From assembly GCA_035583355.1 (NCBI GenBank), contig DATEZQ010000001.1, positions 10,566 through 74,565 of the forward strand: a DNA stretch of 64,000 nt, in the 5' to 3' direction. A program made the translations under genes and the position numbers. The notes beneath the pieces are model-generated. The model was not told the origin of the DNA. It made no database searches and was given only the letters and a program-made list of their open reading frames with translations. This stretch comes from Minisyncoccota bacterium. Lineage in GTDB: Bacteria > Patescibacteriota > Minisyncoccia > Phycocordibacterales > UBA6899. Every line of letters starts with the position of its first letter. Position 1 is the first letter of the stretch. Positions 3,317-56,090 of this stretch are shown here, one piece after another.

Positions 3317-4360
3317 ATGAATATTGTACAGCTTGAATCCGTTGCACGAGCGCTGGTCGCACCAGGAAAGGGAATCCTTGCCGCTGATGAATCAAGTGCA
3401 ACTGCCAATAAGCGTTTTGCCGCAGTCTATGTCACTCAAGATGAAGACCACCGTCGCACGTTCCGCGAGATACTTTTGACGACTCCTGATGCAGTCGGTA
3501 TCGTCTCAGGCGTGATCTTTTATGACGAAACATTCTGGGAGAAGGGTTCTTCGGGTGAGCTTTTTCGGGAATATTGCGCAAAACATGGAATAATCCCCGG
3601 CATAAAGGTGGATGAAGGTCTTACTGATCTCCCGGGTTTCCCTGGAGAGAAAGTCAGTAAAGGTCTCGATACTCTTCCTGAGCGTATACAGAAATATGCT
3701 GAAGCGGGTGCTCAGTTTGCGAAGTGGCGTTCCGTCATTGTCATTGGTGAAAAAATTCCTACTGATGCTTGTATCGCTGCGAACGCGTATGTGCTTGCGC
3801 GTTATGCTCGAATCTGTCAGGAGGCGGGTGTAGTGCCTATCGTTGAGCCTGAAGTGCTCTTTGATGGCAAACATACTTCCGAGCAATGTGAGGCTGTGAC
3901 GAGTCATGTTCTTGAGACACTCTTTGCCGCAATGCGTACCTACCGTGTACATTTCCCTGGTGCGATATTGAAGACAGGTATGGTCCTTCCAGGAAAAGAT
4001 TCTGGTATCCCTGTTGATGAGACTGATGTTGCAGATCGTACGGTGCGCACTTTGCGTACCCATGTGCCTCATGATATTGGGGGTGTGGTATTCCTTTCGG
4101 GTGGTCAGACACCACATCAGGCCTTTGCGAACTTGAATGCGATCGCGCAGCGTGGTCCACATCCTTGGGGATTGACCTTCTCTTATTCACGCGCACTTCA
4201 GGATCCAGTGTTGAAACATTGGGCAGTACATCAAACAGATATCGTCGGAGCGCAGTCGATTTTTGCACATCAGCTCAAGGTTGCACAAGCAGCACGATCG
4301 GGAAGTATGAGTGTGGCGGCGCATAGTGATGATTTCGTTTCCCACTCCCAAGACATGTAG
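3317..4360 (+). CDS. fba: fructose-bisphosphate aldolase, class I
   Basis: N-terminal GKGILAADES signature and overall class I aldolase similarity. Length 347 aa. Confidence 0.85.
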   Translation: MNIVQLESVARALVAPGKGILAADESSATANKRFAAVYVTQDEDHRRTFREILLTTPDAVGIVSGVIFYDETFWEKGSSGELFREYCAKHGIIPGIKVDEGLTDLPGFPGEKVSKGLDTLPERIQKYAEAGAQFAKWRSVIVIGEKIPTDACIAANAYVLARYARICQEAGVVPIVEPEVLFDGKHTSEQCEAVTSHVLETLFAAMRTYRVHFPGAILKTGMVLPGKDSGIPVDETDVADRTVRTLRTHVPHDIGGVVFLSGGQTPHQAFANLNAIAQRGPHPWGLTFSYSRALQDPVLKHWAVHQTDIVGAQSIFAHQLKVAQAARSGSMSVAAHSDDFVSHSQDM

Positions 4361-4569
4361 AAAACCGCATATTTCGGCGCATCTTGCCATGCTTCGGCGT
4401 GCGACTCGCTCACCGTAGAACACCTACGGCTCGCTAGAGTTCGCATACCTCCAGCATAGCAACCTGCATCCGAAATCTGCGTTTTTTTGTTATCTCAAAT
4501 ATATAAATCGAATACTGAAATATTTAAATATTTAAATATGTATTGGATTGCGTAATTAAAAAACCAAGA

Positions 4570-4737
4570 TCAACTGATCTCGGTATCTAGAGTAGGGGTC
4601 GCATCTGGAGCTGCACTGAAGACGCGGATTTGTCCGCAGCCTTTACATTTAATTTCCACCGTCGCCTCGACAAGATTGCCCTTGAAGAGCAATTTTCCGC
4701 AAGAACATTTGTGATTTTTGAGCTCTGTATCTTCCAT
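4570..4737 (-). CDS. small zinc-ribbon protein (Com-like CxxC...CxxC), 55 aa
   Basis: Translated manually as MEDTELKNHKCSCGKLLFKGNLVEATVEIKCKGCGQIRVFSAAPDATPTLDTEIS. It falls below the ORF-track length cutoff. It is divergently arranged with the Cys-rich gene at 4900. Confidence 0.45.
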   Translation of the reverse strand: MEDTELKNHKCSCGKLLFKGNLVEATVEIKCKGCGQIRVFSAAPDATPTLDTEIS

Positions 4738-8875: not shown

Positions 8876-9156
8876 TGTTCGGCTCAATCGACAAACAGCG
8901 TTTAGTAATTGGTGGCGCACTATTTATTGGTGTGTTTGTTTTGCCATCAATACTTACCCTGATTATTGGTGCATTGCTTGCATTGCGTTACAATAACTAC
9001 TTCGAGTTTCCGGTATTCGCATTACTCATTGATGCAGTTTATCGCACTAATAGCATGTCAACGTTCGGCTTGTTTGGTTTTGCGGTAATCTACGTGCTCG
9101 CTGTTGATTATTTCAGAGTGAGAATTCGTATGCGTGATAATCGTAGGCTTTACTAA
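8875..9156 (+). CDS. MreD-like small membrane protein (putative)
   Basis: Its ATG overlaps the mreC stop (ATAATG). The 93-aa product is hydrophobic and sits at the mreD position of the mreBCD-PBP2 cluster. Confidence 0.4.
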   Translation: MFGSIDKQRLVIGGALFIGVFVLPSILTLIIGALLALRYNNYFEFPVFALLIDAVYRTNSMSTFGLFGFAVIYVLAVDYFRVRIRMRDNRRLY

Positions 9157-10936
9157 CGTGGCTTCATTTTTCAAAAAAAGAACACTCGTCAATGAAGACA
9201 TCGCTCCCGATGAGATTTTTTTGGATGATCGAAATATGCCAGGCTTCGATCAGCAGCAGTTTGAGGGTCGTATTGAGCAACCGATTGCTCGTGCATCAAT
9301 TATTGCTCTTGGAGGTTTATTTGTACTCATCACTGTAGTTTTTTGGGTGAAGCTCGCGGATATGCAGGTTGCTCATGGTTCTGATTATGCAGCACAGTCA
9401 ACGCGCAACCGTATTGACGAAACATATATTTTCCCAGAGCGTGGCGTCATCAGTGATCGTAATGGAGTACCACTCGCTTGGAATCTTCCAAAGGAAGGGG
9501 ATGATGCAGACTTTGCGAAGCGAAAGTATATTGAAAAAGGTGGGTTCGGTCATATTCTTGGCTATCTAGGTTATCCACTCAAGGATAAGAACGGCTTGTA
9601 CTATCAGAAGGCATATACTGCAATCAACGGTATTGAGTCGCAGTATCATGAATTGCTTTCTGGTGCGATTGGTAAACACCTTGTTGAGGTGGATGCGCGT
9701 GGTAATGTTGTTTGGTCAAATACAATTATTCCTCCTGTACCTGGAAAGAATATTACGCTTGCAATCGATGCTGACTTGCAGCATCAAATGTACGAGATTG
9801 TTAGTGGAGTCGCTCGCGCGGGTAACTGGACCGCAGGTGCAGCAGCGATAATGGATATTAATAATGGTGAACTCATTACGCTCACTTCTTTCCCAGAGTT
9901 CAGTTCGAATGTCATGACCGAGCGTGATGATCCGGAAAAAATGGAATCTTATCATAAGGATAAGCGCTCTCCGTTTATTGATCGAGCGGTTTCGGGGCTT
10001 TTTGCGCCAGGATCTATTGTGAAGCCACTTATCGCGGCGGCAGCACTGCAGGAAAAACTGATTACAAAGAATACTATCATTGTATCTGAAGGAAGAATCA
10101 CCATTCCAAACAAGTACTTTCCTGATAAGCCTACCCATTTCAATGACTGGCGTGCACACGGAGCAATGACCGTGAAGGAAGGTATCGCGTATTCATCTGA
10201 CGTATTCTTTTATGAGATCGGAGGAGGCTTTGGTGCACAGAAGGGTTTGGGGATCGAGCGACTTGAGAAATGGTATCGTAGCTTTAGTTATGGCGCTCCA
10301 ACAGGGATCGATCTTGAAGGGGAGGCGAGCGGGACGCTTCCAAATCCTGCATGGAAAGAGAAGACATTTAATGGTGATCCGTGGCGTGTCGGTGATACCT
10401 ATTTCACAAGCATCGGTCAGTATGGAGTGCAATCAACCTTGCTTCAGCCACTAGTTGAAGCTGCTGCGATAGCGAATTATGGAACAGTGCTTACGCCACA
10501 CCTTGTAAAGGATCAGGTATTTCCAACACGAACAATTGCGATTGATAAAAAGAATTTTGATATCGTGCAAGAGGGCATGCGCTTGGCAGCATCTCCTTCA
10601 GGAACAGCGAATACGCTGGTAATGGATGGGGTACACTTCGGTGCAAAGACGGGAACTGCAGAACTCGGCGTTACTAAGAATCATGTGAACTCTTGGGTTA
10701 TCGGTTTCTTCCCATACGAAAAGCCGAAGTACGCTTTTGCCTTGGTGATGGAGCATGGTATGAAGGGTGATACAAAGAATGCTGCATATACAATGCGCAA
10801 GTTCTTTGATTGGCTTGCGGTGGCGCATCCTGAATATCTTGGCATGAAGGCTCCGCTTGCGGCACCTACAGAAGATAGCAATGGTCATGATGGTGAAGCC
10901 GAGGCCCCGATACCAGCTCCGGTCGTTGGTCAGTAG
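9134..10936 (+). CDS. mrdA: penicillin-binding protein 2 (peptidoglycan D,D-transpeptidase)
   Basis: SxxK (GSIVKP), SxN (SSD) and KTGTA motifs. Sits downstream of mreBCD. The exact start is uncertain (9134 or an internal ATG near 9236). Confidence 0.85.
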   Translation: MIIVGFTNVASFFKKRTLVNEDIAPDEIFLDDRNMPGFDQQQFEGRIEQPIARASIIALGGLFVLITVVFWVKLADMQVAHGSDYAAQSTRNRIDETYIFPERGVISDRNGVPLAWNLPKEGDDADFAKRKYIEKGGFGHILGYLGYPLKDKNGLYYQKAYTAINGIESQYHELLSGAIGKHLVEVDARGNVVWSNTIIPPVPGKNITLAIDADLQHQMYEIVSGVARAGNWTAGAAAIMDINNGELITLTSFPEFSSNVMTERDDPEKMESYHKDKRSPFIDRAVSGLFAPGSIVKPLIAAAALQEKLITKNTIIVSEGRITIPNKYFPDKPTHFNDWRAHGAMTVKEGIAYSSDVFFYEIGGGFGAQKGLGIERLEKWYRSFSYGAPTGIDLEGEASGTLPNPAWKEKTFNGDPWRVGDTYFTSIGQYGVQSTLLQPLVEAAAIANYGTVLTPHLVKDQVFPTRTIAIDKKNFDIVQEGMRLAASPSGTANTLVMDGVHFGAKTGTAELGVTKNHVNSWVIGFFPYEKPKYAFALVMEHGMKGDTKNAAYTMRKFFDWLAVAHPEYLGMKAPLAAPTEDSNGHDGEAEAPIPAPVVGQ

Positions 10937-11541: not shown

Positions 11542-13005
11542 ATGGCATCACTTGAAGAAATTCGCACCGAGCGTCTGCGCAAGCACGCACTCCTCCTTGA
11601 GAAGGGAATGAATCCATATCCTTCGAAAGTCCCTCGTACGCATGCAGTAAGTGCAGTGCGCGCAAATTTTGCAGACCTCGAATCAAAGGCAGCGATCGTT
11701 GCGCTCGCGGGACGTGTCATGGCCATTCGTGGTCAGGGCGCCATTCAGTTCGTTGTGCTCGATGACGGTACGGGTACATTCCAGGCCGTCATGAAGCGTG
11801 ACACGCTCGGAGAGGAGAAGATGGATTTCTTCGGCGCTACTGTAGACATGGGTGATTTTATCTCTGTAACCGGAACCGTATTTACCACGCAGCGTGGTGA
11901 GGCAAGTATCCTTGTGACCGACTGGGTCATGGCAAGCAAGTCATTGCTCCCACTCCCTGATAAGTGGGGTGGACTCCAGGACGAAGAAGAAAAGCTGCGT
12001 AAGCGCTACCTCGATATTCTGACAAATGCAGAATTGAAGGATCTTTTCATCAAGAAGTCAAAGTTCTGGCAGGCAATGCGTTCATTCCTTATCAATGAGG
12101 GTTATCTCGAAGTCGAGACTCCGATTATCGAAGTGACAACGGGAGGAGCGGATGCTCGTCCATTTGCCTCACATCACTGGGCACTTGATATCCCTGTCTT
12201 TAACCGCATTTCTGCCGGTGAGCTGTGGCAGAAGCGCCTCATGGTCGCAGGTTACCCAAAGACCTTCGAGATTGGACGCATCTTCCGTAATGAGGGCATG
12301 AGTCCAGAGCACGCACAGGACTATACACAGATGGAGTGCTATGCAGCTTGGGAGAATTTCGAAGAGGGAATGCAGTTCGTGGAGCGTCTCTACCGCCATG
12401 TTGCGAAGGAGGCATTCGGGACCGAGCAATTCACCATTCGTGGTTTCGATATCGACCTCAGTAAGCCATGGGCACGCTACGACTACACGGAGACTATTCA
12501 TCGTATGACTGGTGTCCATATCGTGACGGCTACCCAGGAAGAACTCGATGCAAAGCTCAAGGAGCTTGGTGTGCGTTTCGACCCCAAGGGCTGGAATCGT
12601 ATGCGTGCGATTGATAATCTTTGGAAGTGGTGCCGCAAGCAGATTGCAGGACCAGGATTCCTTATTAATGCACCTGTGGAGATGGCTCCACTTGCGAAGG
12701 TTGCAAAGGATGGCAAGACCGTTGAGATGTACCAGCCAATCATCGCGGGAAGCGAGGTAGGTCGTGGATACAGTGAGCTCAATGATCCTATTGATCAGCG
12801 ACAACGATTCACGGAGCAGCAAGGTATGCGTGATGCAGGTGATGAGGAGGCACAGATGGCGGACTGGGAGTTCGTCGAAGCGCTAGAGCATGGTATGCCA
12901 CCTACATCAGGTTTCGGCGTCTCGGAGCGTTTGTTCTCATTTTTGGCAGATAAGCCAATTCGCGAAGCCCAGCTTTTCCCACTGGTGAAGCCAAAGATAG
13001 ATTAG
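11542..13005 (+). CDS. lysS: lysine--tRNA ligase (class II)
   Basis: OB-fold N-terminal domain, class II aaRS motifs and the GMPPTSGFGVSERL C-terminal motif. Confidence 0.9.
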   Translation: MASLEEIRTERLRKHALLLEKGMNPYPSKVPRTHAVSAVRANFADLESKAAIVALAGRVMAIRGQGAIQFVVLDDGTGTFQAVMKRDTLGEEKMDFFGATVDMGDFISVTGTVFTTQRGEASILVTDWVMASKSLLPLPDKWGGLQDEEEKLRKRYLDILTNAELKDLFIKKSKFWQAMRSFLINEGYLEVETPIIEVTTGGADARPFASHHWALDIPVFNRISAGELWQKRLMVAGYPKTFEIGRIFRNEGMSPEHAQDYTQMECYAAWENFEEGMQFVERLYRHVAKEAFGTEQFTIRGFDIDLSKPWARYDYTETIHRMTGVHIVTATQEELDAKLKELGVRFDPKGWNRMRAIDNLWKWCRKQIAGPGFLINAPVEMAPLAKVAKDGKTVEMYQPIIAGSEVGRGYSELNDPIDQRQRFTEQQGMRDAGDEEAQMADWEFVEALEHGMPPTSGFGVSERLFSFLADKPIREAQLFPLVKPKID

Positions 13006-13008
13006 AAA

Positions 13009-13040
13009 TAAAACACCGTCTAAAGATGGTGTTTTTCTTT
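13009..13040 (+). terminator. intrinsic terminator after lysS
   Basis: aaacacc-gtctaaaga-tggtgttt followed by a T-run. Confidence 0.7.
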
Positions 13041-13225
13041 CTCGAAGGATTTAATGTGCAATACTTTTGTCAAACTATATAACGGGTGTTTTGTGCAAAA
13101 TGCATGCCCATTCTGTTCGGCCGATGATTATGTGATTGTCGGGGTCATCGAATCAGTATTCCTAGGATTTCTTGACGAAAACAGTAACGACGGTAATGTG
13201 GGTAGAGAAGAACCTTGGAGGTAGT

Positions 13226-14590
13226 ATGTCCATCAATGATCGGCCACGTTGTGGCTTTTGTCTTTCCGATGAAGGGCCGCTTATTCCCGGAAGTGCCGTT
13301 TCTCGTCTTTTTGAAGGCGATGTAGTTCGAGAGATATTGAATGTGCTCGAAGATAACGGAATCTATAATCCCTCTCGAAACATTGCTGATGCAGTCGCGT
13401 ATGTTCATATCTGCCCCAGATGTGTGCTGCGCTATGCAGAGCAAGAGGTAGAGAAGCAGAGGAGTGATGCACGTGAAGATTCGGTTGACTATACACCACA
13501 GACTATTCATGGGTATCTCAACCGTTGGGTCGTAGGTCAAGATCGTGCGAAGAAAACACTCGCAATCGCGATTTACGAACATTACGCGCGAATGCGCATC
13601 AAGGAGATTTCAAGAGTTCCGAGTGATCCGTATCGCGATGTTGAACTCAAGAAGGCGAATGTGCTCCTTATTGGGCCAACGGGTAGTGGTAAAACATTGC
13701 TCATAGAAACGATTGCGCGCTATCTCGATGTTCCATTCGTTGTTGTTGATGCAACGACGATCACGGAAGCGGGCTATGTCGGCAAAGATGCGGATCATTG
13801 CATCAAACGCCTTTTGCTCCTTTCGGATGGTTCTGTGTCTCGCGCGGAACGCGGTATTGTTTATCTCGATGAGATTGATAAGATTGCATGTGCACAGGAT
13901 ACGAGCATCAATCGCGACATTGGAGGTGAGGGAGCGCAGCAGGCGTTACTCAAACTCATTGAAGGGGTCGAGGTTGAAGTGACGACGCGAAGTGATTCGG
14001 GCAGTCCGTCGAAGTCCACAGTGAACACGAGCGGCATACTCTTTATTGCAAGCGGTGCGTTTCCCGGCTTACCCGAGATCATTGGGAAGCGCAAGCATAG
14101 CAGGGGAATGGGTTTCCAGACCTCGCCACAGAAGAAGCAGTGTTCAGAGGATTGCCTCTGTGACGTCACCGTAGAGGATTTGAAGCGCTATGGCCTGATT
14201 CCAGAGTTTCTCGGCCGATTTCCGGTCATTGAGACACTGGAGGCACTCTCTCGTGCTGACCTCATTAGCATCCTCAAGGACCCAAGAAATTCGCTACTCA
14301 ATCAGTATCGCAAGTTGTTCTTATTTGAAGGAATACAACTCACCGTCGACGATGCAGTACTCGAATCTATTGCTGATGATGCTATGGGTAGTGGCACCGG
14401 CGCCAGAGGCTTGCAGAGTGTATTCGAGAAAATCATGAGAGATTTGGTGTACATTATCCCCGGGATGAAAATCGCTGAACCAGACCTGGTCAGTGTTCAG
14501 GTCACGATGAAATATCTCGAGGGCGGAACTGCAACCTTCGGATATAAAGAAAAAGGGCCTGATGGCTCTAGACGACGTGCACGTCGATGA
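13226..14590 (+). CDS. clpX: ATP-dependent Clp protease ATP-binding subunit ClpX
   Basis: N-terminal Cys pairs CGFC...CPRC and Walker A GPTGSGKT. GGAGG lies 4 nt before the ATG at 13226. The N-terminal zinc-binding region carries an extra ~33 aa between the Cys pairs. Confidence 0.85.
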   Translation: MSINDRPRCGFCLSDEGPLIPGSAVSRLFEGDVVREILNVLEDNGIYNPSRNIADAVAYVHICPRCVLRYAEQEVEKQRSDAREDSVDYTPQTIHGYLNRWVVGQDRAKKTLAIAIYEHYARMRIKEISRVPSDPYRDVELKKANVLLIGPTGSGKTLLIETIARYLDVPFVVVDATTITEAGYVGKDADHCIKRLLLLSDGSVSRAERGIVYLDEIDKIACAQDTSINRDIGGEGAQQALLKLIEGVEVEVTTRSDSGSPSKSTVNTSGILFIASGAFPGLPEIIGKRKHSRGMGFQTSPQKKQCSEDCLCDVTVEDLKRYGLIPEFLGRFPVIETLEALSRADLISILKDPRNSLLNQYRKLFLFEGIQLTVDDAVLESIADDAMGSGTGARGLQSVFEKIMRDLVYIIPGMKIAEPDLVSVQVTMKYLEGGTATFGYKEKGPDGSRRRARR

Positions 14591-29920: not shown

Positions 29921-30217
29921 AAGATGCTAGAGAGTGATACGCAGAGATATCTCACGAGCTTTGCTCGCGCACCCTAAAGGGGCCCGCACGGCCAGGCTCC
30001 TCGATTTCATTACATGAACGGTACACCTTTTGGACCTTTTGTATCGAAGACTCACAAAAGTCCTCAAAAGGTCTTGCTCTCTCGCTCCCATAAGAATGGG
30101 ACCCATGAGCAAGAGCTCACCCACGGTTCTCGACGGAACCTCTTCGAGGTTCCTGCTTTCCTCCACGGGAGAGGTGTCCCTCTCCCGACCCCTTCTCCGT
30201 TCGATTCTCTGTAGGGA
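29921..30217. ncRNA. candidate structured RNA/repeat element R1, paired with R2 at 52722-52884; strand not determinable
   Basis: Aligns to the reverse complement of 52722-52884 with conserved blocks and compensatory changes: GGAACCTC-TTCG-GAGGTTCC here vs GGAG-cctacaaga-CTCC there. Other shared helices are cgggagagg-tgtc-cctctcccg and the GCTTTGC helix, here carrying a ~170-nt insertion. The termini CAGAGA...TCTCTGTAGGGA copy the T-stem and acceptor of the adjacent tRNA-Glu. Confidence 0.4.
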
Positions 30218-30269
30218 TTCACAAAATAGAAAAACCTCCCAAGCTTTGCTTGAGAGGTTTTTCATTTTG
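30218..30269. terminator. bidirectional terminator at the centre of a ~45-bp-arm inverted repeat that includes the tRNA-Glu 3' end
   Basis: aaaaacctcccaagc-tttg-cttgagaggttttt. The arms extend outward to gttcgattctctgtaggg on both sides. Confidence 0.65.
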
Positions 30270-30341
30270 TGACCCTACAGAGAATCGAACTCTGATTTAA
30301 GGCTTGAGAAGCCTCCGTCCTAACCGTTAGACGATAGGGCC
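30270..30341 (-). tRNA. tRNA-Glu (anticodon CUC)
   Basis: Manual cloverleaf of GGCCCTATCGTCTAACGGTTAGGACGGAGGCTTCTCAAGCCTTAAATCAGAGTTCGATTCTCTGTAGGGTCA. 7-bp acceptor, D and T arms, anticodon loop TTCTCAA. CCA is not encoded. Confidence 0.8.
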
Positions 30342-30614
30342 AGTCGCTGCGCGAACCAGGCTGGCCATTTTGCTAGAGGAATCGGCCACCGCCGATACAT
30401 TTCCTCGCGCCTTTCTCGCAAAACCTCGTAAGGCTGTCGCAATAGGGCCAATGACATTTCTGAGTTCTTGCTAGTCTGTTTCCTTTCTCACAGAGCCCCG
30501 AAGGGCTTTGCAATAAGGGTTACGGGCAACCACAATTCAGCAGAAAAGTGATCAGCTCGTTCGAATATCATAGCAGATTATTCAAGTTTGTAAAGTGCTA
30601 AAAGGGGTGTAGTA

Positions 30615-34583: not shown

Positions 34584-34706
34584 CAAGCTGTCACGCGCTA
34601 CACATAAATTTAGGTTGATATAATCCACCTCGTTTACATTACCCATAGTGGGGGCGACGGAATTCTCTCCGTCGCCAACTAACGCCGTGAGGCGGACTTG
34701 TGGTTG

Positions 34707-34766
34707 CTTTTCACTACTTTAAAAATACCCAAGCTTTGCTTGGGTATTTTTAAAGTAGTGAAAAGC
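34707..34766. repeat. 60-nt perfect hairpin (28-bp stem, TTTG loop) inside a hairpin-rich ~350-nt intergenic region
   Basis: cttttcactactttaaaaatacccaagc-tttg-cttgggtatttttaaagtagtgaaaag. Further stems at ~34780-34800, 34828-34852 and 34903-34927. Confidence 0.9.
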
Positions 34767-34993
34767 CCGTGCTTGCGGACACGGACTTCTCGGTAAGCCG
34801 TCAAGCATTAAGCGCGCATCGTTTCATAAGGACCGTGAAGAACCTTATGGCGTATGTGTGCTCGCAGCCACGAGCGGTCTATGCTTATAATATAGCATAT
34901 TTTAAAGAAAAGTGGAGTGCCTGAGCACTCCACTGTGGATAACTGATTTAGTCAACTTTTAGGGCCAAAAACTTTCCGTCTCATCTCATGGCG

Positions 34994-35437
34994 CTACACG
35001 TGCCGTTTGCGACCCAGTCCTTGAGCCTTGCGTAGCTCGCGAAAGTGCTTGCACGCACGGTTGTAGGCGGTCGTCATGATGCGTCCATCGACCTCGACTT
35101 CCTTCGGTTTCGGAGTCTCTCCGACCCAGCGCACATTCTGAAGAACGGTACGATGACCCTTCGGCATGAAGGCCACCTCGGTATTCTTGTTGATGGTGAA
35201 GATGATGCCGAGCGGATGTGCACGTACGAGCTGGATAGGGTCGCGGAGTCTCTGCTGTTCGATCCGCATGTGACTGAGCGCAGAACCGACTTTGCTTTTG
35301 AGTTCATGCTCGTCGATGCCCACAGGGACCTCGAGCTCTTTGATCACCAGTGCGAACGCCTCGTGAAAGCCGAACTGATGGAGGAGCGCACTGGTTCCGT
35401 CCACATACTTCTTGAGCACTTCTTCGGTGATGGGCAT
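34994..35437 (-). CDS. hypothetical protein (147 aa), second gene of a two-gene module
   Basis: Coding-like composition. No family recognised. Basic C-terminus. Confidence 0.45.
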   Translation of the reverse strand: MPITEEVLKKYVDGTSALLHQFGFHEAFALVIKELEVPVGIDEHELKSKVGSALSHMRIEQQRLRDPIQLVRAHPLGIIFTINKNTEVAFMPKGHRTVLQNVRWVGETPKPKEVEVDGRIMTTAYNRACKHFRELRKAQGLGRKRHV

Positions 35438-36288: not shown

Positions 36289-37092
36289 TTGAAACAGCGG
36301 TCAGATACTATGGAAACGCACATGCAGAATGGAGGAATAATACCGCCTACACCACACCTTGCGCGCGAACGAGAGTCGGCGCAGCTGAAACGATTACAAG
36401 AGGCATATGAACAGGCAATAAGTTGCCAAATGGCTCTTGAACAGAAGATTTCAGACTTGAACGAAACGATTGAGCGATCGGAGCGTAATTTTAGCATTCT
36501 GCAGGTTCAGCTTGATAGCGCACGAAAGAAGATTGCGCGTCAAAATCGATTGCGTGAGGAAGCTGAGGCGCGCTCACTTCGTCATCAATTCATCGATATA
36601 TATAACCTTGAAGGTTTTCGTCATGAGTATAATCGTTTTGTGCGTGAACTTGCGCGTGGAATGTGGCGCTCTGGTACAATCGTCTATTTTGATCTCGATG
36701 GTTTCAAGCTTGTGAATGATCTTCTTAGTCACGATGTGGGTAATGAAATCCTTATTGCCTTTGGGAAATGTCTTACTGATGCGAGCCGACCTGAAGATGT
36801 CGCAGCATGTTTGCATGGTGATGAGTTTGCACTCATACTTCCAAATGCTGAACGTAAGGATGCAGAAGCCGTTATGGATCGTATCCATCGTGCAGCGGCG
36901 AATATCAACGCAGGGGAGCTTGATTACAAGCATATCTTTGCGGAACTTGGTAGAGATCAACTCGTTGCATTTTCATCCGGATATTACACTATTCAGCGGG
37001 AAGATCCCGTGCTCTCTCCAGAAGAAGTGCTTGCACAGGCAGAATCAATGATTCCAAAGTTTTTTGAAAAGCGTACGGCGAGAATACGATAA
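36289..37092 (+). CDS. GGDEF-domain protein with degenerate HGDEF motif, N-terminal coiled coil; paralog A
   Basis: FDLDGFKLVNDLLSHDVGNEIL and CLHGDEFALIL. It is 80-90% nt-identical in blocks to the gene at 37274. Confidence 0.7.
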   Translation: MKQRSDTMETHMQNGGIIPPTPHLARERESAQLKRLQEAYEQAISCQMALEQKISDLNETIERSERNFSILQVQLDSARKKIARQNRLREEAEARSLRHQFIDIYNLEGFRHEYNRFVRELARGMWRSGTIVYFDLDGFKLVNDLLSHDVGNEILIAFGKCLTDASRPEDVAACLHGDEFALILPNAERKDAEAVMDRIHRAAANINAGELDYKHIFAELGRDQLVAFSSGYYTIQREDPVLSPEEVLAQAESMIPKFFEKRTARIR

Positions 37093-37273: not shown

Positions 37274-38056
37274 ATGGCCACGAAGCTACGCATCACACCA
37301 GACGAGAAAACTGCTTTACGGCGTGCTCTCGAAGAGGAGGCCGCTGCGCACAAAGAGACACAAGCAGCGCATGAGCGATCAATCGAACGTCAAATGGCGC
37401 TTGAGCGACAGCTCGCAGATCTACGCGAAACGTTTATGGAGACGGAGCGCAGTTTTAGTATTATGCAGATTCAGCTTGATAGTGCCAAGAAGAAGATTGC
37501 TCGTCTTAGTAAATTACGCAGAGAGGCAGAAGCACGTTCCTTGAGGCATCAATTCATAGATATATACAACCTTGAAGGTTTTCGTCATGAATATAATCGT
37601 TTTGTGCGTGAACTTGCGCGTGGTATTTGGAACTCCGGTACTATAGTCTATTTCGACCTCGATGGATTTAAGCTAGTGAATGATCTTTTGAGTCACGATG
37701 TGGGTAATGAGATTCTCATTGCATTTGGAGAGTGTCTGCATAATGAAAGTCGACCCGAAGATATATCTGCCTGTCTGCATGGGGATGAGTTTGCATTGAT
37801 TCTCCCTGACGCAGATCGCAAGGATGCCGAATCCATCATGGCGCGCATTCATAAGGCTGCTGCGGGTATTAATGCCGGTGATATGGACTACAAACATATC
37901 TTTGCCGAGCTCGGGAGGACTCAGCTTGTCGAGTTCTCTTCGGGATATTTTACGATGCAGCGTGGTGACCCTATCCTCTCTGCAGAGGAAGCACTAATGA
38001 AAGCTGAGGCTACGATTCCTAAGTTTTTCAATCGCCGAAAGCCGAGAAATAAGTAG
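37274..38056 (+). CDS. GGDEF-domain protein with degenerate HGDEF motif; paralog B
   Basis: Same motifs as paralog A. Tandem duplicate. Confidence 0.7.
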   Translation: MATKLRITPDEKTALRRALEEEAAAHKETQAAHERSIERQMALERQLADLRETFMETERSFSIMQIQLDSAKKKIARLSKLRREAEARSLRHQFIDIYNLEGFRHEYNRFVRELARGIWNSGTIVYFDLDGFKLVNDLLSHDVGNEILIAFGECLHNESRPEDISACLHGDEFALILPDADRKDAESIMARIHKAAAGINAGDMDYKHIFAELGRTQLVEFSSGYFTMQRGDPILSAEEALMKAEATIPKFFNRRKPRNK

Positions 38057-47966: not shown

Positions 47967-48010
47967 ATCCACAGACTTAAGTAGACGGCCGTCTACTTAA
48001 GTCTGTGGAT
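47967..48010. repeat. 44-nt perfect palindrome (22-bp arms)
   Basis: atccacagacttaagtagacgg|ccgtctacttaagtctgtggat. Confidence 0.9.
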
Positions 48011-48113: not shown

Positions 48114-49331
48114 ATGCAAAAATATCTCAACGACCGTTTCGGTATCACGTTTCCTGTGTTCATTCTCTCTGTGGTGAGTTTTTTGAATGACGTCGCAACG
48201 GATATGATCTATCCAATCATTCCAATCTTCCTTACTCAAGTCATTGGTGCCCCAGTACAAGTACTCGGACTTATCGAAGGAGTTGCAGAGTCTACCGCAA
48301 GCTTTCTCAAGGTAGCCGCAGGTGTCATTTCTGATAAGCTTGAGCGACGCAAGCCATTTGTAGTCCTTGGTTATGTCCTCTCTGCTACCGCAAAGCTCTT
48401 CTTTGGATTCGCATACTCTTGGCATGCTGTTCTCGGTGGAAAATTCGCAGATAGGCTGGGGAAGGGAACGCGTACTTCGGCGCGTGATGCATTTATCGCG
48501 GAGAATTCAGCACCCAAGGATAGAGGAGTGGTCTTTGGTTTTCATCGTGGTATGGATACACTCGGAGCGGTCTTTGGTCCACTTATTGGAATCGTGTTAC
48601 TCTCGTATTTTCCAAATAACTTCCGTGAGATATTCCTCTTCTCGCTCATTCCAACCGTTTTCGCAATTGCACTCCTTATTATTTTCATCAAGGAGAAAGA
48701 GAAGGCTCCTGATACGATTCGTGTGACGATTCCTCTCCGCATCATGGTGAAGAATCTTTCGTATCCATTTTTTGCATTTCTTTTGGTGAGTGCGATGTTC
48801 GCGATCGGTAATAGCTCTGACGCATTTCTGATTTTGAAAGCGAATAATCTCGGCTATTCTCTGGTCATGGTGGTTGCACTCTTTGCCACATTCAATTTCA
48901 CGTATGCACTACTCTCGGTGCCTGCAGGTATTGTGGCGGACAAGGTGGGGCCAAGAAATATCATGATTGTCGGCTTTCTGGTGTTTGGCATCATTTACCT
49001 TCTTTTTGGCTATGTACAAACGCCAGCACTGCTCTGGGTACTCTTTCCACTCTATGGGGTCTATATGGCCTTTACAGATGGCGTAGGGAAGGCCTACATA
49101 TCGAATATTATCCCGCATGAGCAGTTGGGTACCGCATATGGTATCCATCAGACGGTTGTCGGCTTCTGCGCATTCTTCGCTTCGATTATCGCCGGTTTCC
49201 TCTGGGCGAATGTGAGTTCATCCGCACCATTCATCTTTGGTGGATCGCTCGCAATTGCCGCAGCAGTACTCTTTCTCTTCGTGGGCCCAAAGGGGAAAGT
49301 CGTTATTGAGGCTCATCATCACGCATCATAA
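48114..49331 (+). CDS. MFS transporter
   Basis: 12 predicted TM helices and an MFS-like GxLaDrxGrR loop (GGKFADRLGKGTR). Confidence 0.85.
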   Translation: MQKYLNDRFGITFPVFILSVVSFLNDVATDMIYPIIPIFLTQVIGAPVQVLGLIEGVAESTASFLKVAAGVISDKLERRKPFVVLGYVLSATAKLFFGFAYSWHAVLGGKFADRLGKGTRTSARDAFIAENSAPKDRGVVFGFHRGMDTLGAVFGPLIGIVLLSYFPNNFREIFLFSLIPTVFAIALLIIFIKEKEKAPDTIRVTIPLRIMVKNLSYPFFAFLLVSAMFAIGNSSDAFLILKANNLGYSLVMVVALFATFNFTYALLSVPAGIVADKVGPRNIMIVGFLVFGIIYLLFGYVQTPALLWVLFPLYGVYMAFTDGVGKAYISNIIPHEQLGTAYGIHQTVVGFCAFFASIIAGFLWANVSSSAPFIFGGSLAIAAAVLFLFVGPKGKVVIEAHHHAS

Positions 49332-52274: not shown

Positions 52275-52413
52275 AAGTATATTCTAACATGGGGAAGAAA
52301 GTCGAAAGTAAAAAATGAATAATTATACAAGAGTCTAGTAATCTTATTATATTTGTGATATAACAGGACAGTTCAAATAGAATTTAAAGGCAGGAACTGC
52401 TTAGATAATTGAA

Positions 52414-52596
52414 TATTACGGGATCGTCTAAAGGTAAGAATAGCCCTATGGGCACCAGGTATTCTTGCCCGATAGAGAGTCGCCACCGCGACCCTGATCA
52501 ACTCACGCCTTCGCAGGCTCAGTCGTTCACGGGTAGGAAAGAGGCCGGCCTCCGTCCGGCTCTCCGTAAGTATTGAATTGTTTTTAAATATAGTAT
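52414..52596 (+). repeat. partial duplication of the tRNA-Gln 5' region followed by a ~155-nt structured pseudo-tRNA-like segment
   Basis: tattacgggatcgtctaaaggta at 52414-52436 is identical to 52594-52616, the start of the true tRNA. The downstream part contains a T-arm-like GCCGG-CCTCCGT-CCGGC and CTCCGTA. Confidence 0.55.
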
Positions 52597-52667
52597 TACG
52601 GGATCGTCTAAAGGTAGGACAGAGGCCTTTGAAGCCTTTAATCTTGGTTCGATTCCAAGTCCCGTAG
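52597..52667 (+). tRNA. tRNA-Gln (anticodon UUG)
   Basis: Manual cloverleaf of TACGGGATCGTCTAAAGGTAGGACAGAGGCCTTTGAAGCCTTTAATCTTGGTTCGATTCCAAGTCCCGTAG. Anticodon loop CTTTGAA. CCA is not encoded. Confidence 0.8.
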
Positions 52668-52721
52668 CAATGGCCAAAAAGAACGCGAAAGCGTTCTTTT
52701 TGTTTGCCATTGCTAACGGGA
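52668..52721. terminator. bidirectional terminator at the centre of a ~43-bp-arm inverted repeat that includes the tRNA-Gln 3' end
   Basis: aaaaagaacgc-gaaa-gcgttcttttt. The arms extend through agcaatggcc/gccattgct to ttcgattccaagtcccgt on both sides. Confidence 0.65.
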
Positions 52722-52884
52722 CTTGGAATCGAACGGAGAGGGGTCGGGAGAGGAATACCTCTCCTGTGCAGGAAAGCAGGAGTCTTGTAGGCTCCGTCGA
52801 GAACCGTGGGTTCTTGAAGAGCTTTGCTGTGCGAGGCTCCTCTGGAGTGCGCACGCAAAGCGAGTGAGATATCCAAGCCCCATA
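52722..52884. ncRNA. candidate structured RNA/repeat element R2, paralog of 29921-30217
   Basis: Conserved blocks with R1 (see R1). Terminal helix GGGGCTTGG/CCAAGTCCC, or GGGACTTGG/CCAAGCCCC on the other strand. The termini copy the tRNA-Gln T-stem and acceptor. Confidence 0.4.
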
Positions 52885-53005
52885 GCAGTTTGAAGAAATT
52901 TCTGTTTCGGAACACGGCACATCAATGTAACACATTGATTAGTACAATTTTTACACTATGTGATACTATATGTGTATTTATGTAACTAATAATGAATTAA
53001 GTAAT

Positions 53006-54772
53006 ATGCAGCAAAAACAAGAATTCGCTTTGCGTAAACTAGAGGAAGAAATTTCCGCTAAGATCCTATCCGTTTCGCAGCAAGTCCGAACCGCAAGAAC
53101 AGCTGAACAGTTTTTTGATTTGACATGCGAGCTCTATGCAGTGGTTGAAAAGATGAAAAATGAGAATCTGCTCTGGGTCGGTAATAAAACAAATTACCCA
53201 GTTCTGTTTTTGAGTGCGGTATTGAGAAATGAGACGATTCAGAGAGAGTTGATAAGGGTTACTGAGGAGGAAGAAGGAATATATGATCAAGCCATCATCT
53301 CAAATACAAATCTTGAGTCCAAGCTATTAATACGAACATCATTACTGTTAGCATTCATGCCAATAGCAGTTGGGTTAGAATCTCTAGAGGAGGTGAATAT
53401 AGTTTTCTATAGAAAGGTTATAAATGATGCACTTAAGGAGGCCATCAGAAATTCGCAATCAAATATTTCTATAATTAGCGTCTGCTTTAAGATTGAAGGT
53501 ATTATAAAGACAAAAGATTATTTTCATGGAACATCTTCATTACTAATAGATGTTGGCGCTTTGTTCGAAGTATTAAAACTGTCAAGAATTTTATGTGGGA
53601 TATCGTCCGCGGCAATGCCAGTTACGCAAATATTGGCAGCACAGTTTTCCAAGTCAAATGAAAAAATTCTGTCATTTGAACTAAATTTGTCCGAAATCCT
53701 TTCAAGTGTTTATAGTTCAATTTTCAAAGTTAGTCGCAGTATTGAATATTATATAAACACTCCTGTTGACGAAAGCTCAATTCGTGAAGTTGGAAGGTAT
53801 AGTGATTTGTATCAAACTTCAAACGAAAAAAACCTAATTTTCTTTCTGGAAAAGATCTCTTCAGATTTTAACTTCCAAGAGGGTAGGAGATTTTATGAAG
53901 TAATGATCTCAAAAATTAGTTCAGCCGATTCTCTTCGACTTGAGTTGGTGGATTTTGCAACAAAACACCTTAGCGGATTCCGCGGTGATATAAGCGAGGA
54001 TCATGGTGAGTGGTCGAATAAGGTATTTATTACTTCCCTTAGACTTCTATCAGTTCTGTCTGTGATAAATTTAGCAAAAGATTCGAGATGGAAAGTGTCT
54101 ACGTCGGTTAGGGAGTATGTAAGATGGCTTGAGGAAGTTCATGGAATAATTAACAAATATTCTCTTGAGGATGACTGGTCTGCTATTTCTGATTTTGTTG
54201 ATGATGAAACGTCTGAGATTGAATGGAAGTCAACATTTTTTACACCAACAGAGCAAATGTATTCTTCTAAAGAATCAGATTCTTTAGTTAGTAGAAGTAT
54301 ATTTGGCAAAATATCAAAAACAGTATTGGGGATGATGAATACTTCAGGCGGAACTATTCTCGTTGGACTTGTAGAAAACCCGAAATTAATCATACGAGCT
54401 GATATTTCCGAGAAGTTAATATGCAAAAATGGAAAAACATTTTATGATGTCGGTTATGAACTAAGTCAGATTGGTAGGTCTCTTGATAGTGTTAGGCTTC
54501 AAATGCTTGAAAATTTGAAGAATATGACGGATGAGTCATCGGAAAAATTTAATGATCTTTTCACATTTATTCCTTTGCAAATTAAGTCGGGAGGCGCTTC
54601 GGTTACAATTGTAAAAATTCAGATTAAAAAAGGGGCTAGAAAGTTCTATTCAGTTAAAAAAGAAAATAATTCAGTTTGGATTTCTCTAGCAATGCGTGCT
54701 ATGGGGCAGACGATAGATGTAGATGTCAGGGATTACCTTCCTGAAGGAGATATAGAAAAGGCTCAGGATTAA
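53006..54772 (+). CDS. large hypothetical protein with Schlafen/AlbA_2-like domain, in an AT-rich island
   Basis: EIEWKSTFF...VLGMMNTSGGTILVGLVEN resembles the AlbA_2 (PF04326) signature. About 400 aa of N-terminal sequence has no known domain. Local GC is visibly lower than the flanks. ATG at 53006 is preferred over 52970. Confidence 0.55.
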   Translation: MQQKQEFALRKLEEEISAKILSVSQQVRTARTAEQFFDLTCELYAVVEKMKNENLLWVGNKTNYPVLFLSAVLRNETIQRELIRVTEEEEGIYDQAIISNTNLESKLLIRTSLLLAFMPIAVGLESLEEVNIVFYRKVINDALKEAIRNSQSNISIISVCFKIEGIIKTKDYFHGTSSLLIDVGALFEVLKLSRILCGISSAAMPVTQILAAQFSKSNEKILSFELNLSEILSSVYSSIFKVSRSIEYYINTPVDESSIREVGRYSDLYQTSNEKNLIFFLEKISSDFNFQEGRRFYEVMISKISSADSLRLELVDFATKHLSGFRGDISEDHGEWSNKVFITSLRLLSVLSVINLAKDSRWKVSTSVREYVRWLEEVHGIINKYSLEDDWSAISDFVDDETSEIEWKSTFFTPTEQMYSSKESDSLVSRSIFGKISKTVLGMMNTSGGTILVGLVENPKLIIRADISEKLICKNGKTFYDVGYELSQIGRSLDSVRLQMLENLKNMTDESSEKFNDLFTFIPLQIKSGGASVTIVKIQIKKGARKFYSVKKENNSVWISLAMRAMGQTIDVDVRDYLPEGDIEKAQD

Positions 54773-54807
54773 ATATTTATTATATTCGTGTTACAATTCG
54801 AAGCAAT

Positions 54808-55122
54808 ATGGCGATGATAAAATGCACAGAATGCGGAAGGGATATTTCAGACCAGGCGTCTACTTGTCCAGCTTGCGGCATACAACTAAAGGAGATCGCA
54901 GTAGAGACGACTAAACCTGTGACAATAGAGTTGACTAGTAAGAAGTGGAAGGTGATAAAGCTTTTTGCATGGCCAGCAGTGATTCTTGGTTTCCTTTGGT
55001 ATATATCAGGAATGCAACAACCTGTACCCCCAACTTCTTCAGGGGTTGGTGCAATGTTCCTCTTTTTTGGAATAATCGGATTAATAGTTGCAAAGCTTGG
55101 AGCTTGGTGGACAAATAAATAA
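54808..55122 (+). CDS. zinc-ribbon membrane protein (104 aa)
   Basis: CTECG...CPACG ribbon followed by two TM helices. Confidence 0.45.
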   Translation: MAMIKCTECGRDISDQASTCPACGIQLKEIAVETTKPVTIELTSKKWKVIKLFAWPAVILGFLWYISGMQQPVPPTSSGVGAMFLFFGIIGLIVAKLGAWWTNK

Positions 55123-55128
55123 TTTCTT

Positions 55129-55389
55129 ATGAAAACCCGCATTACCCTCATCTCCGCATTACTCCTCCTTCCAATGATTGCCTCAGCATTCACGCTTTCC
55201 GACGTGCAGAACTCTGACTTCTGGCCGGGATTCTGGCAGGGACTTACCTTACCATTCCGTCTCTTCTTGCGCTTCTTCATGCATGATCTCGTTATCTTCG
55301 AGCCCGCACGCGCTATCTGGTGGTACCACGTCGGATTCCTCGTAGGAGTCTTCGCAATCTTCACCGGAGGACATCATTCAGCAAAATAA
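55129..55389 (+). CDS. small secreted/membrane protein (86 aa)
   Basis: Signal peptide plus a TM helix. Confidence 0.4.
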   Translation: MKTRITLISALLLLPMIASAFTLSDVQNSDFWPGFWQGLTLPFRLFLRFFMHDLVIFEPARAIWWYHVGFLVGVFAIFTGGHHSAK

Positions 55390-55420
55390 AACATCGGCCA
55401 CTAGTGGCCGATGTGTTTTG
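55386..55420. terminator. bidirectional terminator
   Basis: aaaacatcggccactagtggccgatgtgtttt. Confidence 0.75.
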
Positions 55421-56074
55421 TTATTGCCGTGAGCTCACGGCCGCCGCGCATTCGTAGATGCGCATTTCATGCGGGGAAAGAGCGAAATCGTCGAGTGTGA
55501 GGCCAAGGTGTCCGAGCATTCTTGCTGTCTCTTTCTTGAGACCTCGTCCGAGATTTTCTTTCACGTAATGTTCGATGATGGAAGGCTGGATGGGGAGGAC
55601 TCCGAGGTTGGTAAATGCGTGAACCTCGGATTCCTCGATTCTGTTGCGGGACACGTGTCTTTCGAGGATATACTGCGCTTCTTCCTTGGTGAGTTCACGT
55701 CCGAGGTGGGCAGCATAGAGTTGTGCGTAGCGCAGTGACCCTGTCCCCACGGCCCAGACGAGGAGTTCTTTGTGGAAGCAGCGAGCTTCATTCCCAGAGT
55801 AGCGCTCAGCGAGGGTAATTATGCTCGCCCAATGCTTCCTCATGGAATCCTTGATGATCGTTCTTGCGATCTGCTCCATCTGTTGGGCAGGAAGTTTCAA
55901 CTCGAAGATGCGCTTGATCGCGAATTCGAAATTAAGCTTTGCGAGTCCAAGCATGAACATCGTCAGTATCGTGGTGAACACGAGATTCTCCTTGTGGTTA
56001 TCGTCTGGTCTCTTTATACAATATTCAAATATGATTGTCAAATATACTTTTTCGAGCCCACAAATATAAAACAC
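55421..56074 (-). CDS. hypothetical alpha-helical protein, downstream partner of the SLOG-like gene
   Basis: Coding-like. No family recognised. The start may be internal. Confidence 0.4.
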   Translation of the reverse strand: MFYICGLEKVYLTIIFEYCIKRPDDNHKENLVFTTILTMFMLGLAKLNFEFAIKRIFELKLPAQQMEQIARTIIKDSMRKHWASIITLAERYSGNEARCFHKELLVWAVGTGSLRYAQLYAAHLGRELTKEEAQYILERHVSRNRIEESEVHAFTNLGVLPIQPSIIEHYVKENLGRGLKKETARMLGHLGLTLDDFALSPHEMRIYECAAAVSSRQ

Positions 56075-56090
56075 CCCTCAGGGTGTTTTA

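Follow-up and report, generated by a model that had tools for sequence, protein, structure and literature searches.

Transfer RNA (tRNA) genes are targeted by integrative elements such as tyrosine-integrase prophages, satellites, and islands, whose attachment site attP carries a replacement for the 3′ end of the tRNA. Some recombination sites act as folded single strands, among them the integron attC and the CTX-phage attP hairpin used by XerCD. Dicistronic units of a tRNA and a small RNA (sRNA), cut by tRNA enzymes, include plant tRNA–snoRNA genes, MALAT1–mascRNA, and E. coli 3′ETS-leuZ, while bacterial repeats resembling miniature inverted-repeat transposable elements (MITEs), such as the Correia, ERIC, and RPE elements, combine small size with structure. 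Here, we analyze a stretch of 64,000 nucleotides (nt) from a Minisyncoccota bacterium (assembly GCA_035583355.1, contig DATEZQ010000001.1, positions 10,566 to 74,565; hereafter the window), in which the 3′ ends of a tRNA-Glu and a tRNA-Gln gene each form one arm of a palindrome of ∼90 nt and a conserved element, X, adjoins both palindromes. We tentatively suggest, from sequence comparison and folding, that each palindrome may be the proximal end of a noncoding cassette of ∼0.2 kb joined to the tRNA at the 53/54 boundary of the T-loop.

Group I introns in the tRNA genes of Patescibacteria occupy the 35/36 or other anticodon-loop sites and are spliced (PMC13011429). Our search of the literature and databases available to us returned no description of the architecture formed by X and the tRNA ends; the nearest report was this intron paper, which concerns a different element. 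If X is the structured RNA that it appears to be, it adds one without an Rfam family to the Candidate Phyla Radiation (CPR)/Patescibacteria, whose reduced genomes are thought poor in spare noncoding DNA.

Results

Palindromes at the 3′ Ends of Two tRNA Genes

ARAGORN and Rfam identified exactly two tRNA genes in the window, tRNA-Glu (anticodon CTC, minus strand, 30269/70–30341; RF00005, 62 bits) and tRNA-Gln (anticodon TTG, plus strand, 52597–52667/8; 62 bits), neither with an encoded CCA. Self-BLAST delimited the palindrome P(Glu) to 30199–30290 (inverted match of 88.4% over 95 columns, E = 4.5e-24) and P(Gln) to 52647–52734 (87% over 92, E = 6.7e-22). A repeat search found 18/18 nt identical in the outer arms at Glu (30199–30216/30273–30290) and 22/24 nt at Gln (52642–52665/52716–52739). 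The tRNA arm, which stands on the right at Glu and on the left at Gln, contains the T-loop, the 3′ strand of the T-stem, the 3′ strand of the acceptor stem, the discriminator, and then ∼10 nt of trailer; the palindrome loops are TTTG (Glu) and GAAA (Gln). P(Glu) thus reads as the tRNA 3′ part from G53, the trailer, the terminator, the inverted trailer, and the inverted 3′ part. The first-pass annotation had described the tRNA 3′ ends as palindrome arms with these two loops, and self-BLAST, the repeat search, and the sequence itself all agree.

A hairpin of A-tract, GC-stem, and T-tract forms the center of both palindromes. At Glu, the terminator scan called an intrinsic terminator on the minus strand (30229–30263) with a 16-bp stem, the loop AAA, and the tail TATTTTGTGA. 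This hairpin is terminator-like on the plus strand too, and its stem contains a wobble that is U·G on the tRNA-sense strand and A·C on the other strand. At Gln, we read the core AAAAA-GAACGC-GAAA-GCGTTC-TTTTTGTTTG by eye (52676–52706, plus strand); the consensus scanner did not flag it because the T tract was counted into the stem. The placement of a terminator at each palindrome center, also noted from the sequence earlier, was therefore recovered by the scanner at one locus and by eye at the other. A GC stem-loop followed by a U tract was found at Glu and also in two loci from other genomes introduced below, L014 (15-bp stem) and L001 (14-bp stem).

Beyond the terminator, the Glu antisense trailer and antisense arm (30199–30228, minus strand) are the complement of tRNA-Glu positions 53–73 plus the trailer and, on the minus strand, end in ...CAGAGAATCGAAC, immediately preceding X. 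Their Gln counterparts (52702–52734, plus strand) end in ...CTTGGAATCGAAC. Each inverted copy in the window matches solely its own tRNA, Glu or Gln, which agrees with the earlier description of the arms as copies of the neighboring tRNA and not of a single dispersed repeat. The Gln palindrome is not an assembly artifact because the locus recurs base for base (100% identity) in the Logan contigs L012 and L013, which are independent assemblies.

The 10–15 nt past the discriminator are alike across tRNAs and genomes (30255–30269 in the window, 586–601 in L001, and 160–175 in L006, a metagenome contig), with trailers such as CACAAAATGAAAAAC (Glu) and CACAAAATGACAAAATC (Arg). This likeness reflects either the usual terminator style of the clade or the trailer and terminator traveling with the insert.

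A primer-binding site (PBS), at which the 3′ end of the mature tRNA would prime an adjacent retroelement, had been one proposed role of the inverted arm. The arm can pair with the final ∼20 nt of the tRNA, from the T-loop on, resembling the span of a retroviral PBS, but no complement of CCA (TGG) lies by the arm, the genes themselves being without CCA, and the complementarity runs on through 10–12 nt of trailer into the terminator. The inverted copy therefore points to the gene or its precursor as its source and not to the mature tRNA. Nor did we find a reverse transcriptase (RT), RVT domain, long terminal repeat, or polypurine tract nearby, and Patescibacteria have been reported to be without group II introns (PMC13011429). 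We consider a PBS scarcely credible and drop it.

A Conserved Element Joined at the T-Loop

Directly past the two inverted copies, self-BLAST detected a shared core (30119–30207 vs. 52811–52726; 86.5% over 89 nt, E = 2e-21) in the same orientation relative to the tRNA at both loci. The presence of this conserved core, X, at both ties the Glu and Gln loci together through one element. The inverted arm and X meet at the complement of tRNA G53; in tRNA sense, the junction reads ...AATCGAAC|GGAGA..., and it is ...TCGAAC|G... in all copies. The locus-specific arms had earlier been taken as a sign of local origin at each tRNA, as opposed to the spread of one repeat. The finding of the same X at G53 in both loci and at tRNAs for Arg, Pro, and Glu elsewhere gives that conclusion no support.

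For further analyses, we built a covariance model, R1, from X without the arms. The Gln copy (52735–52863, plus strand; 136.5 bits, E = 3.5e-35) is complete, with hairpins H3-H2-H1-H0 on the tRNA-sense strand. The Glu copy (29957–30198, minus strand) is damaged and matches in two parts, 30100–30197 with 72.3 bits and 29956–30042 with 19.8 bits: the proximal half, consisting of the junction, H3, H2, and half of H1, is intact, while the distal half contains an insertion or rearrangement of ∼115 nt (about 30005–30118) and an altered H0.

On the far side of X, the Gln locus carries a T-loop-like GAGTGAGATA followed by the far arm TCCAAGCCCCATAG (together 52862–52885, plus strand). The far arm itself (52872–52885) is a sense copy of the tRNA-Gln 3′ part with two substitutions and the sole such match in the window. 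At Glu, a T-loop-like GTGAGATA precedes a far arm (together 29935–29956, minus strand) that is more decayed than that of Gln, reading TCTCTGCGTATCAC at 29935–29948 vs. TCTCTGTAGGGTCAC in the 3′ part of tRNA-Glu. A further copy of either tRNA 3′ part, as expected of a distal att repeat closing an island right of tRNA-Gln or left of tRNA-Glu, was absent from the window. Across genomes, a sense copy, sometimes decayed, lies past X wherever its far side is available; the far side of the Pro copy is not.

Public gene calls of 138 and 74 amino acids (aa) overlie tRNA-Gln, its palindrome, and X (window 52519–52935, minus strand; L012 2550–2966; L013 3–227); these are almost certainly spurious open reading frames (ORFs).

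Covariation and Strand Polarity of X

We aligned the five known copies of X, of which three are complete; the covariation thus rests on few sequences, with clean controls. In the alignment, 98.8% of the cells were paired, compared with 31–54% after sliding the partners by 1–3 columns, and compensatory changes had altered 15 of the 43 pairs on both sides. None of the 500 shuffles in the control reached the observed values of pairing and covariation. Evaluating both strands with RNAalifold, we obtained identical helices on each and found the non-Watson–Crick cells to be G·U on the tRNA strand and A·C on the convergent strand; G·U occurred in eight cells on the tRNA strand vs. at most one candidate on the other, and the apical stem of H0 contains an invariant G·U. 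The strand-specific wobbles therefore indicate a single-stranded nucleic acid of tRNA polarity. RNA would be the simplest reading, although a folded DNA strand would give the same signature. The wobbles on the tRNA strand also led us to reject transcription of X convergently with the tRNA, which we had considered by analogy to the palindrome at 34.7 kb.

The near-invariant stretches of X are GGGGUCGG, AGGARAGCAGGA, the H1 hairpin, and the H0 loop GAGGCUCCUCYGGAGUGC. In minimum free energy (MFE) folds of the complete copies, the four hairpins form a multiloop closed by the antisense arm and the far side, the closing stem pairing the antisense arm (a T-stem-like 5 bp plus AAUCGAAC) with the distal GUGAGAUA and the sense arm through, among others, a tandem G·A. 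In the closing stem of the Gln locus, this tandem G·A joins GAGTGAGATA to AATCGAAC. R1 recovers exactly the known copies (72–151 bits) and nothing else in the ∼330 kb examined. Rfam 15 gave no match for X on either strand, at gathering thresholds or at E ≤ 10; only tRNA passes, and the subthreshold matches are to generic hairpin and miRNA models and fall on the palindrome P. It is thus a well-supported reading of the sequences that X is a structured RNA element of ∼140 nt with four hairpins and without an Rfam family.

Copies in Other Genomes

We queried large nucleotide collections with one exact 19-mer that is identical in the two window copies of X and contains no tRNA sequence. These scans were by exact match of the 19-mer only, and the copy number and host range of X given here are lower bounds. 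By a rough estimate, the number of matches, four in species-representative genomes and five in metagenomes, was about that expected by chance; two of the nine are real X homologs (L001 and L006), and the other seven match the 19-mer alone. In L001 (metagenome-assembled genome SKS1.bin43), X adjoins sequences of tRNA-Arg(GCG), and in L006 it adjoins tRNA-Pro(TGG). Another locus, L014, was found through its HlyD ortholog (67% amino-acid identity) and carries an intact X at tRNA-Glu, in synteny with the window across pyruvate kinase, a methyltransferase, tRNA-Glu, and HlyD.

Whatever the tRNA, X is joined at one and the same T-loop position to an inverted copy of that tRNA's 3′ part. At least four genomes show this arrangement, which involves tRNA-Glu, -Gln, -Arg, and -Pro and a constant position of the X junction. 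L014 has the whole palindrome twice, as direct copies (P_a, 4306–4385; P_b, 4534–4618) that are ∼96% identical and enclose X; P_a, with its own trailer and terminator, is the intact counterpart of the far arm. L001 contains three palindromes and two inserts in tandem, in the order P0, X, P1, Y, P2, and tRNA-Arg, with sense copies of the tRNA-Arg 3′ part at 139–159, 366–386, and 602–622. The sense arm of P1, the palindrome attached to X (90% over 82 nt), is merely a 19-nt tRNA fragment, and the unit therefore appears to persist detached from a working tRNA, like a displaced older insertion. The insert Y (387–535) occupies an X-like position between antisense and sense tRNA-Arg arms and adopts an arm-closed multihairpin fold (z = −7.7), but it is not X by sequence or covariance model and may represent a second insert family with the same architecture. 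The by-eye impression of a pseudo-tRNA in Y and in the 5′ leaders found no tRNA-model match at E ≤ 10.

Inverted Arms at tRNAs with and without X

To compare tRNAs uniformly, we aligned the reverse-complemented last 24 nt of the tRNA locally to the 220 nt downstream and compared the best score with those of shuffled sequences. An inverted copy was found 44–70 nt downstream at all five tRNAs associated with X or Y. Four of the five scored 18–20 against shuffled maxima of 10–11, the two window tRNAs reaching 19 and 20 against maxima of 11; the exception was the degenerate P2 arm of L001, which scored 12 and stayed under its shuffled maximum of 14. In the X-free Paceibacterota relatives L020, L022, and L024, whose tRNA loci gave no match to R1, none of the seven tRNAs had an arm (scores of 7–10, equal to background), and their terminators were short and plain or lacking. 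The arm therefore appears to be a property of X-type inserts and not of tRNAs or terminators in general. The earlier view of the structure as specific to tRNA loci is consistent with the seven armless controls.

These comparisons bear on the simplest account of the palindromes, an ordinary bidirectional intrinsic terminator between convergent units and nothing more. Such a terminator would explain the inner ∼35 nt, which are canonical in the tRNA direction and terminator-like in the other and have typical A and T tracts on both sides. It would explain only this inner third: the outer 28–33 nt of each arm, consisting of trailer and 19–21 nt of tRNA, go far past the requirements of termination, the structure of X belongs to the tRNA strand and not to the convergent one, and the control tRNAs manage with plain terminators or none. 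We consider this account very unlikely.

Origin of the Units

Read in tRNA sense, the proposed unit would comprise tRNA positions 1–52; the 3′ part from G53 with trailer and terminator; the inverted trailer and 3′ part; X; and the far arm. In the cassette reading, which we favor as quite possible but short of probable, a cassette would enter by recombination in the universally conserved T-loop, much as tRNA-targeting integrative elements do. The tRNA would then take its 3′ end and terminator from the cassette, and the original 3′ end, now displaced, would be the far arm. The inverted arm would be part of the attachment region of the cassette, and correction within the palindrome or selection would hold it to the tRNA sequence as the far arm decays. 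This reading would account for the invariant 53/54 junction, the direct repeats, the stacking, the detached P1–X, the insert Y, and the local rearrangements described below.

Palindromes of this kind might also form neutrally, by replication template switching at the terminator hairpin, a backward copying of trailer and tRNA 3′ end by the nascent strand, and a second switch at T-loop microhomology. The product would run sense–antisense–sense (a duplication–triplication with inverted duplication, DUP-TRP/INV-DUP), quasipalindrome correction would keep the arms perfect, and X would be incidental at the second junction. The order of the 3′ parts is indeed sense–antisense–sense, decay affects the far arm but spares the antisense arm, and the tRNA 5′ ends are locally duplicated as well; furthermore, the T-loop would be a natural microhomology because it is the only sequence common to all tRNAs, and other long perfect palindromes stand at terminators away from tRNAs (34706–34766 and 47967–48010). 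Template switching does not explain a conserved, covarying structure of 140 nt at four tRNAs in different genomes or the seven armless tRNAs with ordinary terminators in X-free relatives, and the inverted arm that L014 has on its distal palindrome is not among its predictions. On balance, we find it improbable.

Transcription Signals and Folding of the Putative Read-Through Unit

The promoter of tRNA-Glu (TTTACA-16-TGcTATGAT, with an extended −10; 30594–30567, minus strand) is conserved in L014, and promoter and leader together span 30342–30594 on the minus strand, the leader being ∼215 nt. Between the terminator and X, no promoter-like site was found in any copy. Read-through from the tRNA promoter is therefore the likeliest route if X is expressed, and we infer that X may be made as RNA by read-through from this strong promoter, a step that the cassette reading would share.

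Whole read-through units fold far below shuffled sequences (z = −11.9 for Gln and z = −13.7 for L014). In both folds, the antisense arm captures the 3′ half of the tRNA in a hairpin of 40–45 bp, and in the transcript envisaged by the cassette reading it would zip onto that half from the trailer outward. In the L014 fold, the far arm is the partner of the tRNA 5′ acceptor strand, and the whole resembles a tRNA with P and X in its T-loop.

The covariation also suits a reading in which X is a host-beneficial, tRNA-coupled sRNA, in other words a dicistronic tRNA–sRNA and not a mobile unit. The antisense arm and the far sense arm would form a helix with a true tRNA T-stem and acceptor 3′ end, followed by the same trailer, as its 3′ strand. 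This helix would borrow the tRNA ends for processing, and RNase P, 3′ trimming, and CCA addition would excise and stabilize an X transcribed from the tRNA promoter; the palindrome would be a by-product of X needing, past the terminator, a 5′ strand complementary to the tRNA 3′ end. Much of the evidence is as a functional RNA would have it: the covariation is strong, with strand-specific G·U on the tRNA strand; the single-stranded junctions are conserved; X is better conserved than the flanking genes, with orthologs and paralogs equally similar; every complete copy has the closing stem; the far arm of L014 has a trailer and a terminator of its own and thus a 3′ end resembling that of a tRNA; and X is without a promoter while the tRNA promoter is strong and conserved. 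Other features fit poorly. In both window copies, decay has reached the acceptor-like portion of the far arm, past which the window has no terminator, and the Gln far-arm substitutions give A·C and not G·U on the RNA strand. The window Glu copy is rearranged in H1/H0, and X therefore seems dispensable there. The recurrence at four different tRNAs, the re-tailoring of the arms each time, and the stacking in L001 are all left unexplained, and a good terminator stands before X. A host sRNA is thus a possible reading but a rather unlikely one; it and the cassette reading are not mutually exclusive.

Copies of tRNA 5′ ends lie in the leaders. Direct repetition of 11 nt of upstream flank and the first 22 nt of tRNA-Gln is seen at 52407–52439 (plus strand; 96% over 26), and this 33-nt copy is inside the leader, 180 nt upstream of the gene, with promoter-like sites upstream of it. 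In the Glu leader, 12 nt of the tRNA 5′ end recur (30440–30451), with a counterpart in L014 (4767–4778). Another relative, L028, is without a segment of ∼107 nt of the Glu leader (at 70–100) that is bounded by a direct repeat of 10–11 nt, which makes the segment look like an insertion at the tRNA 5′ end or the remnant of a tandem duplication there.

Evolution of the tRNA-Glu Locus and Its Surroundings

The genes flanking the tRNA-Glu locus are 70–73% identical in nucleotide sequence between the window and L014 but in opposite orientation, while the block of proximal X, P, tRNA, leader, and promoter (30149–30596 vs. L014 4483–4853) is 81–89% identical and in the same orientation. The block is therefore inverted relative to HlyD and the methyltransferase. 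The inverted arm of tRNA-Glu is present in L014 and identical to that of the window, as established by the comparison of orthologous loci that the first-pass annotation had recommended, while the terminator stem and the pairing of trailer and antisense trailer show compensatory differences between the two. The far arm has decayed both in the window and in another relative, L019. Orthologous and paralogous copies of X are equally similar (73–88%), and the relationships among the copies were uninformative as a test of recent spread vs. vertical descent because all pairs fall in this range.

The tRNA-Glu block has the orientation of L014 in L028 and that of the window in L019.

Among the relatives, X is found in L014 and partly in L019; L016, L020, L022, and L024 are distant and nonsyntenic, and L028 breaks inside P. 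We considered L019 as an empty site and rejected it, its first 25 nt being the reverse complement of the distal end of X. Short-read contigs break inside X or P in five cases (L010, L011, L015, L019, and L028). Just past the far arm, lineage-specific DNA occurs at three loci: a low-GC stretch at Gln, ORF161 in L014, and an AT-rich ORF in L019. The genes neighboring X encode HlyD/ABC efflux components, a methyltransferase, an SLFN/AlbA_2 protein, and small ORFs without assignment.

In the window, the region right after the Gln far arm (52900–56700) has a low GC content (0.40–0.43). Its genes include one for a protein of 600 aa that carries an SLFN/AlbA_2 domain at its C terminus, another for a zinc-ribbon protein, and several family-less ORFs; the region is probably acquired DNA. 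In the X-free relative L022, three direct fragments resembling T-loops and 3′ ends lie past tRNA-Gln(CTG) (9005–9170), reminiscent of att scars, and a large serine recombinase and a KAP NTPase are encoded a few kilobases from this gene (12723–14042); the locus looks like a conventional integration hotspot.

Other Palindromes and Repeats in the Window

A gene-free region of ∼410 nt (34584–34994) contains a near-perfect palindrome of 61 nt (34706–34766), the center of which, CCAAGCTTTGCTTGG, equals that of the tRNA-Glu terminator. The flanks look like promoter-bearing, convergent noncoding units that share ∼15 nt past the terminator, without an Rfam match, and may be two unannotated sRNA genes. 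Upstream of the ORF at 48114–49331, a perfect, loopless palindrome of 44 nt (47967–48010) with a GGCC center and no T tract has the look of an operator or recognition site rather than of a terminator. The adjacent ORFs 36427–37064 and 37391–38028 (267 and 260 aa) share 74% DNA identity over 638 nt, which implies a tandem gene duplication.

Discussion

Several observations weigh against the cassette reading. We found no recombinase, transposase, integrase, RT, or defense gene in the ∼0.2-kb unit or the ORFs adjacent to any copy, the only hits there being weak, subthreshold matches to DNA_processg_A, PsyrA, and JetB; an enzyme encoded elsewhere in the genome could act in trans. Searches with two conserved motifs or blastn found no X on viral contigs or in phage and plasmid records, and no close relative provides an empty X site, the one empty site being that of the 5′ leader segment. 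The window and L014, whose HlyD proteins are 67% identical, carry X at orthologous tRNA-Glu genes; L019 (HlyD 73%) has the distal end of X upstream of HlyD, and L028 (HlyD 61%) has only tRNA-Glu and part of P. This pattern fits long vertical residence, and the equal similarity of orthologous and paralogous copies looks like the result of constraint on a useful RNA and not of recent spread. A cassette armed by one tRNA and entering another would yield a hybrid tRNA, and the re-matching of the arms is unexplained. Furthermore, the distal palindrome of L014 also has an inverted arm, which a single simple integration would not predict; a canonical terminator separates the tRNA from X, making read-through expression an assumption; and the known copies number five, of which three are complete.

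The reading may be extended to a general and more speculative one, in which the tRNAs of this Paceibacterota clade would be landing pads for a new class of protein-less, RNA-structured mini-cassettes, with X, Y, and perhaps further members. These would attach at the T-loop through a folded hairpin mimicking the duplex 3′ end of the target gene, a tRNA-directed analog of attC or the CTX attP, would provide a new 3′ end and terminator that keep the host gene alive, and would carry a read-through RNA cargo with a tRNA-like helix. We regard this extension, drawn from the combined analyses, as unlikely as it stands. Two suggestions of the first-pass annotation, a recombination site and a processing or regulatory structure, live on in modified form within the cassette and host-sRNA readings.

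Should the cassette reading be true, the repertoire of tRNA-targeted mobile DNA would extend to protein-less units of ∼0.2 kb, raising the question of which enzyme recognizes the T-loop hairpin. If X is instead an sRNA of the host, it would exemplify, in bacteria, an RNA that matures by means of borrowed tRNA ends. In practical terms, the units break short-read assemblies, draw spurious ORF calls, and accompany inversion and duplication at tRNA loci.

Comparison with Known Systems

The palindromes have in common with bidirectional Rho-independent terminators the central GC stem between A and T tracts, but their arms reach ∼30 nt farther, across the trailer and the final 20 nt of the tRNA. The X unit resembles the Correia, ERIC, and RPE elements in being small, noncoding, hairpin-rich, low in copy number, assembly-breaking, and associated with rearrangement, here the block inversion. 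It differs from them in having no element-encoded terminal inverted repeats and no fixed target duplication: its inverted repeats are derived from the target and specific to the locus, and the target is strictly the tRNA T-loop. We rejected assignment to a MITE or insertion sequence, the flanks of X being tRNA-specific and the duplicated lengths variable.

The group I introns of Patescibacteria tRNA genes share with X the phylum, the presence of a structured RNA at tRNA genes, and, in the whole-unit fold, an insertion-like appearance. X, of ∼140 nt, is external to a complete tRNA, is joined at the 53/54 boundary, and has a distal "exon" with a mutated T-loop (GTGAGAT). A group I intron was rejected as the tRNA is complete and unspliced, no Intron_gpI match occurs at E ≤ 10, and site, size, and context differ. 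A T-box leader was likewise rejected, the downstream genes encoding HlyD and the SLFN/AlbA_2 protein and no T-box match being found. For the ωRNA/reRNA of IS200/IS605 and the bridge RNA of IS110, the neighboring ORFs contain no TnpB, IscB, or IS110 recombinase domains; the resemblance, a scaffold beside ∼20 locus-specific nt, is only a lead.

Closer in layout are the dicistronic tRNA–small RNA units, in which, as here, a structured RNA lies directly downstream of the tRNA on the same strand, without a promoter and with tRNA-like ends. They differ from our loci in the terminator that intervenes here and in the bracketing of X by inverted and direct copies of the tRNA 3′ end.

Like attC and the CTX attP, the inverted half-sites of P could fold, as a single strand, into a duplex mimicking a double-stranded target; integration would leave both halves on the same side of the insert, adjoining the hybrid site, a geometry that matches the one here. 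The structure is conserved with strand-specific wobbles, and the fold and not the sequence is maintained, the sequence of P varying with the tRNA while 40–45 bp of pairing are kept. In contrast to those systems, our loci have no dif/Xer context, IntI, or phage genes, the target would be the T-loop, and a working terminator occupies the hairpin center.

The X unit differs from tRNA-targeting integrative elements in being ∼0.2 kb long and geneless, in carrying an inverted copy of the 3′ end at the junction, and in having as its cargo one structured RNA that is the same at four tRNAs, with arms matched to each. Like them, it has its junction in the T-loop, an element-side 3′ end within the gene, and a displaced sense copy on the far side, direct repeats of the tRNA 3′ part flanking the insert in L014, in L001, and, as decayed far arms, in the window; and like them, it occurs stacked in tandem (L001) and borders on variable DNA beyond.

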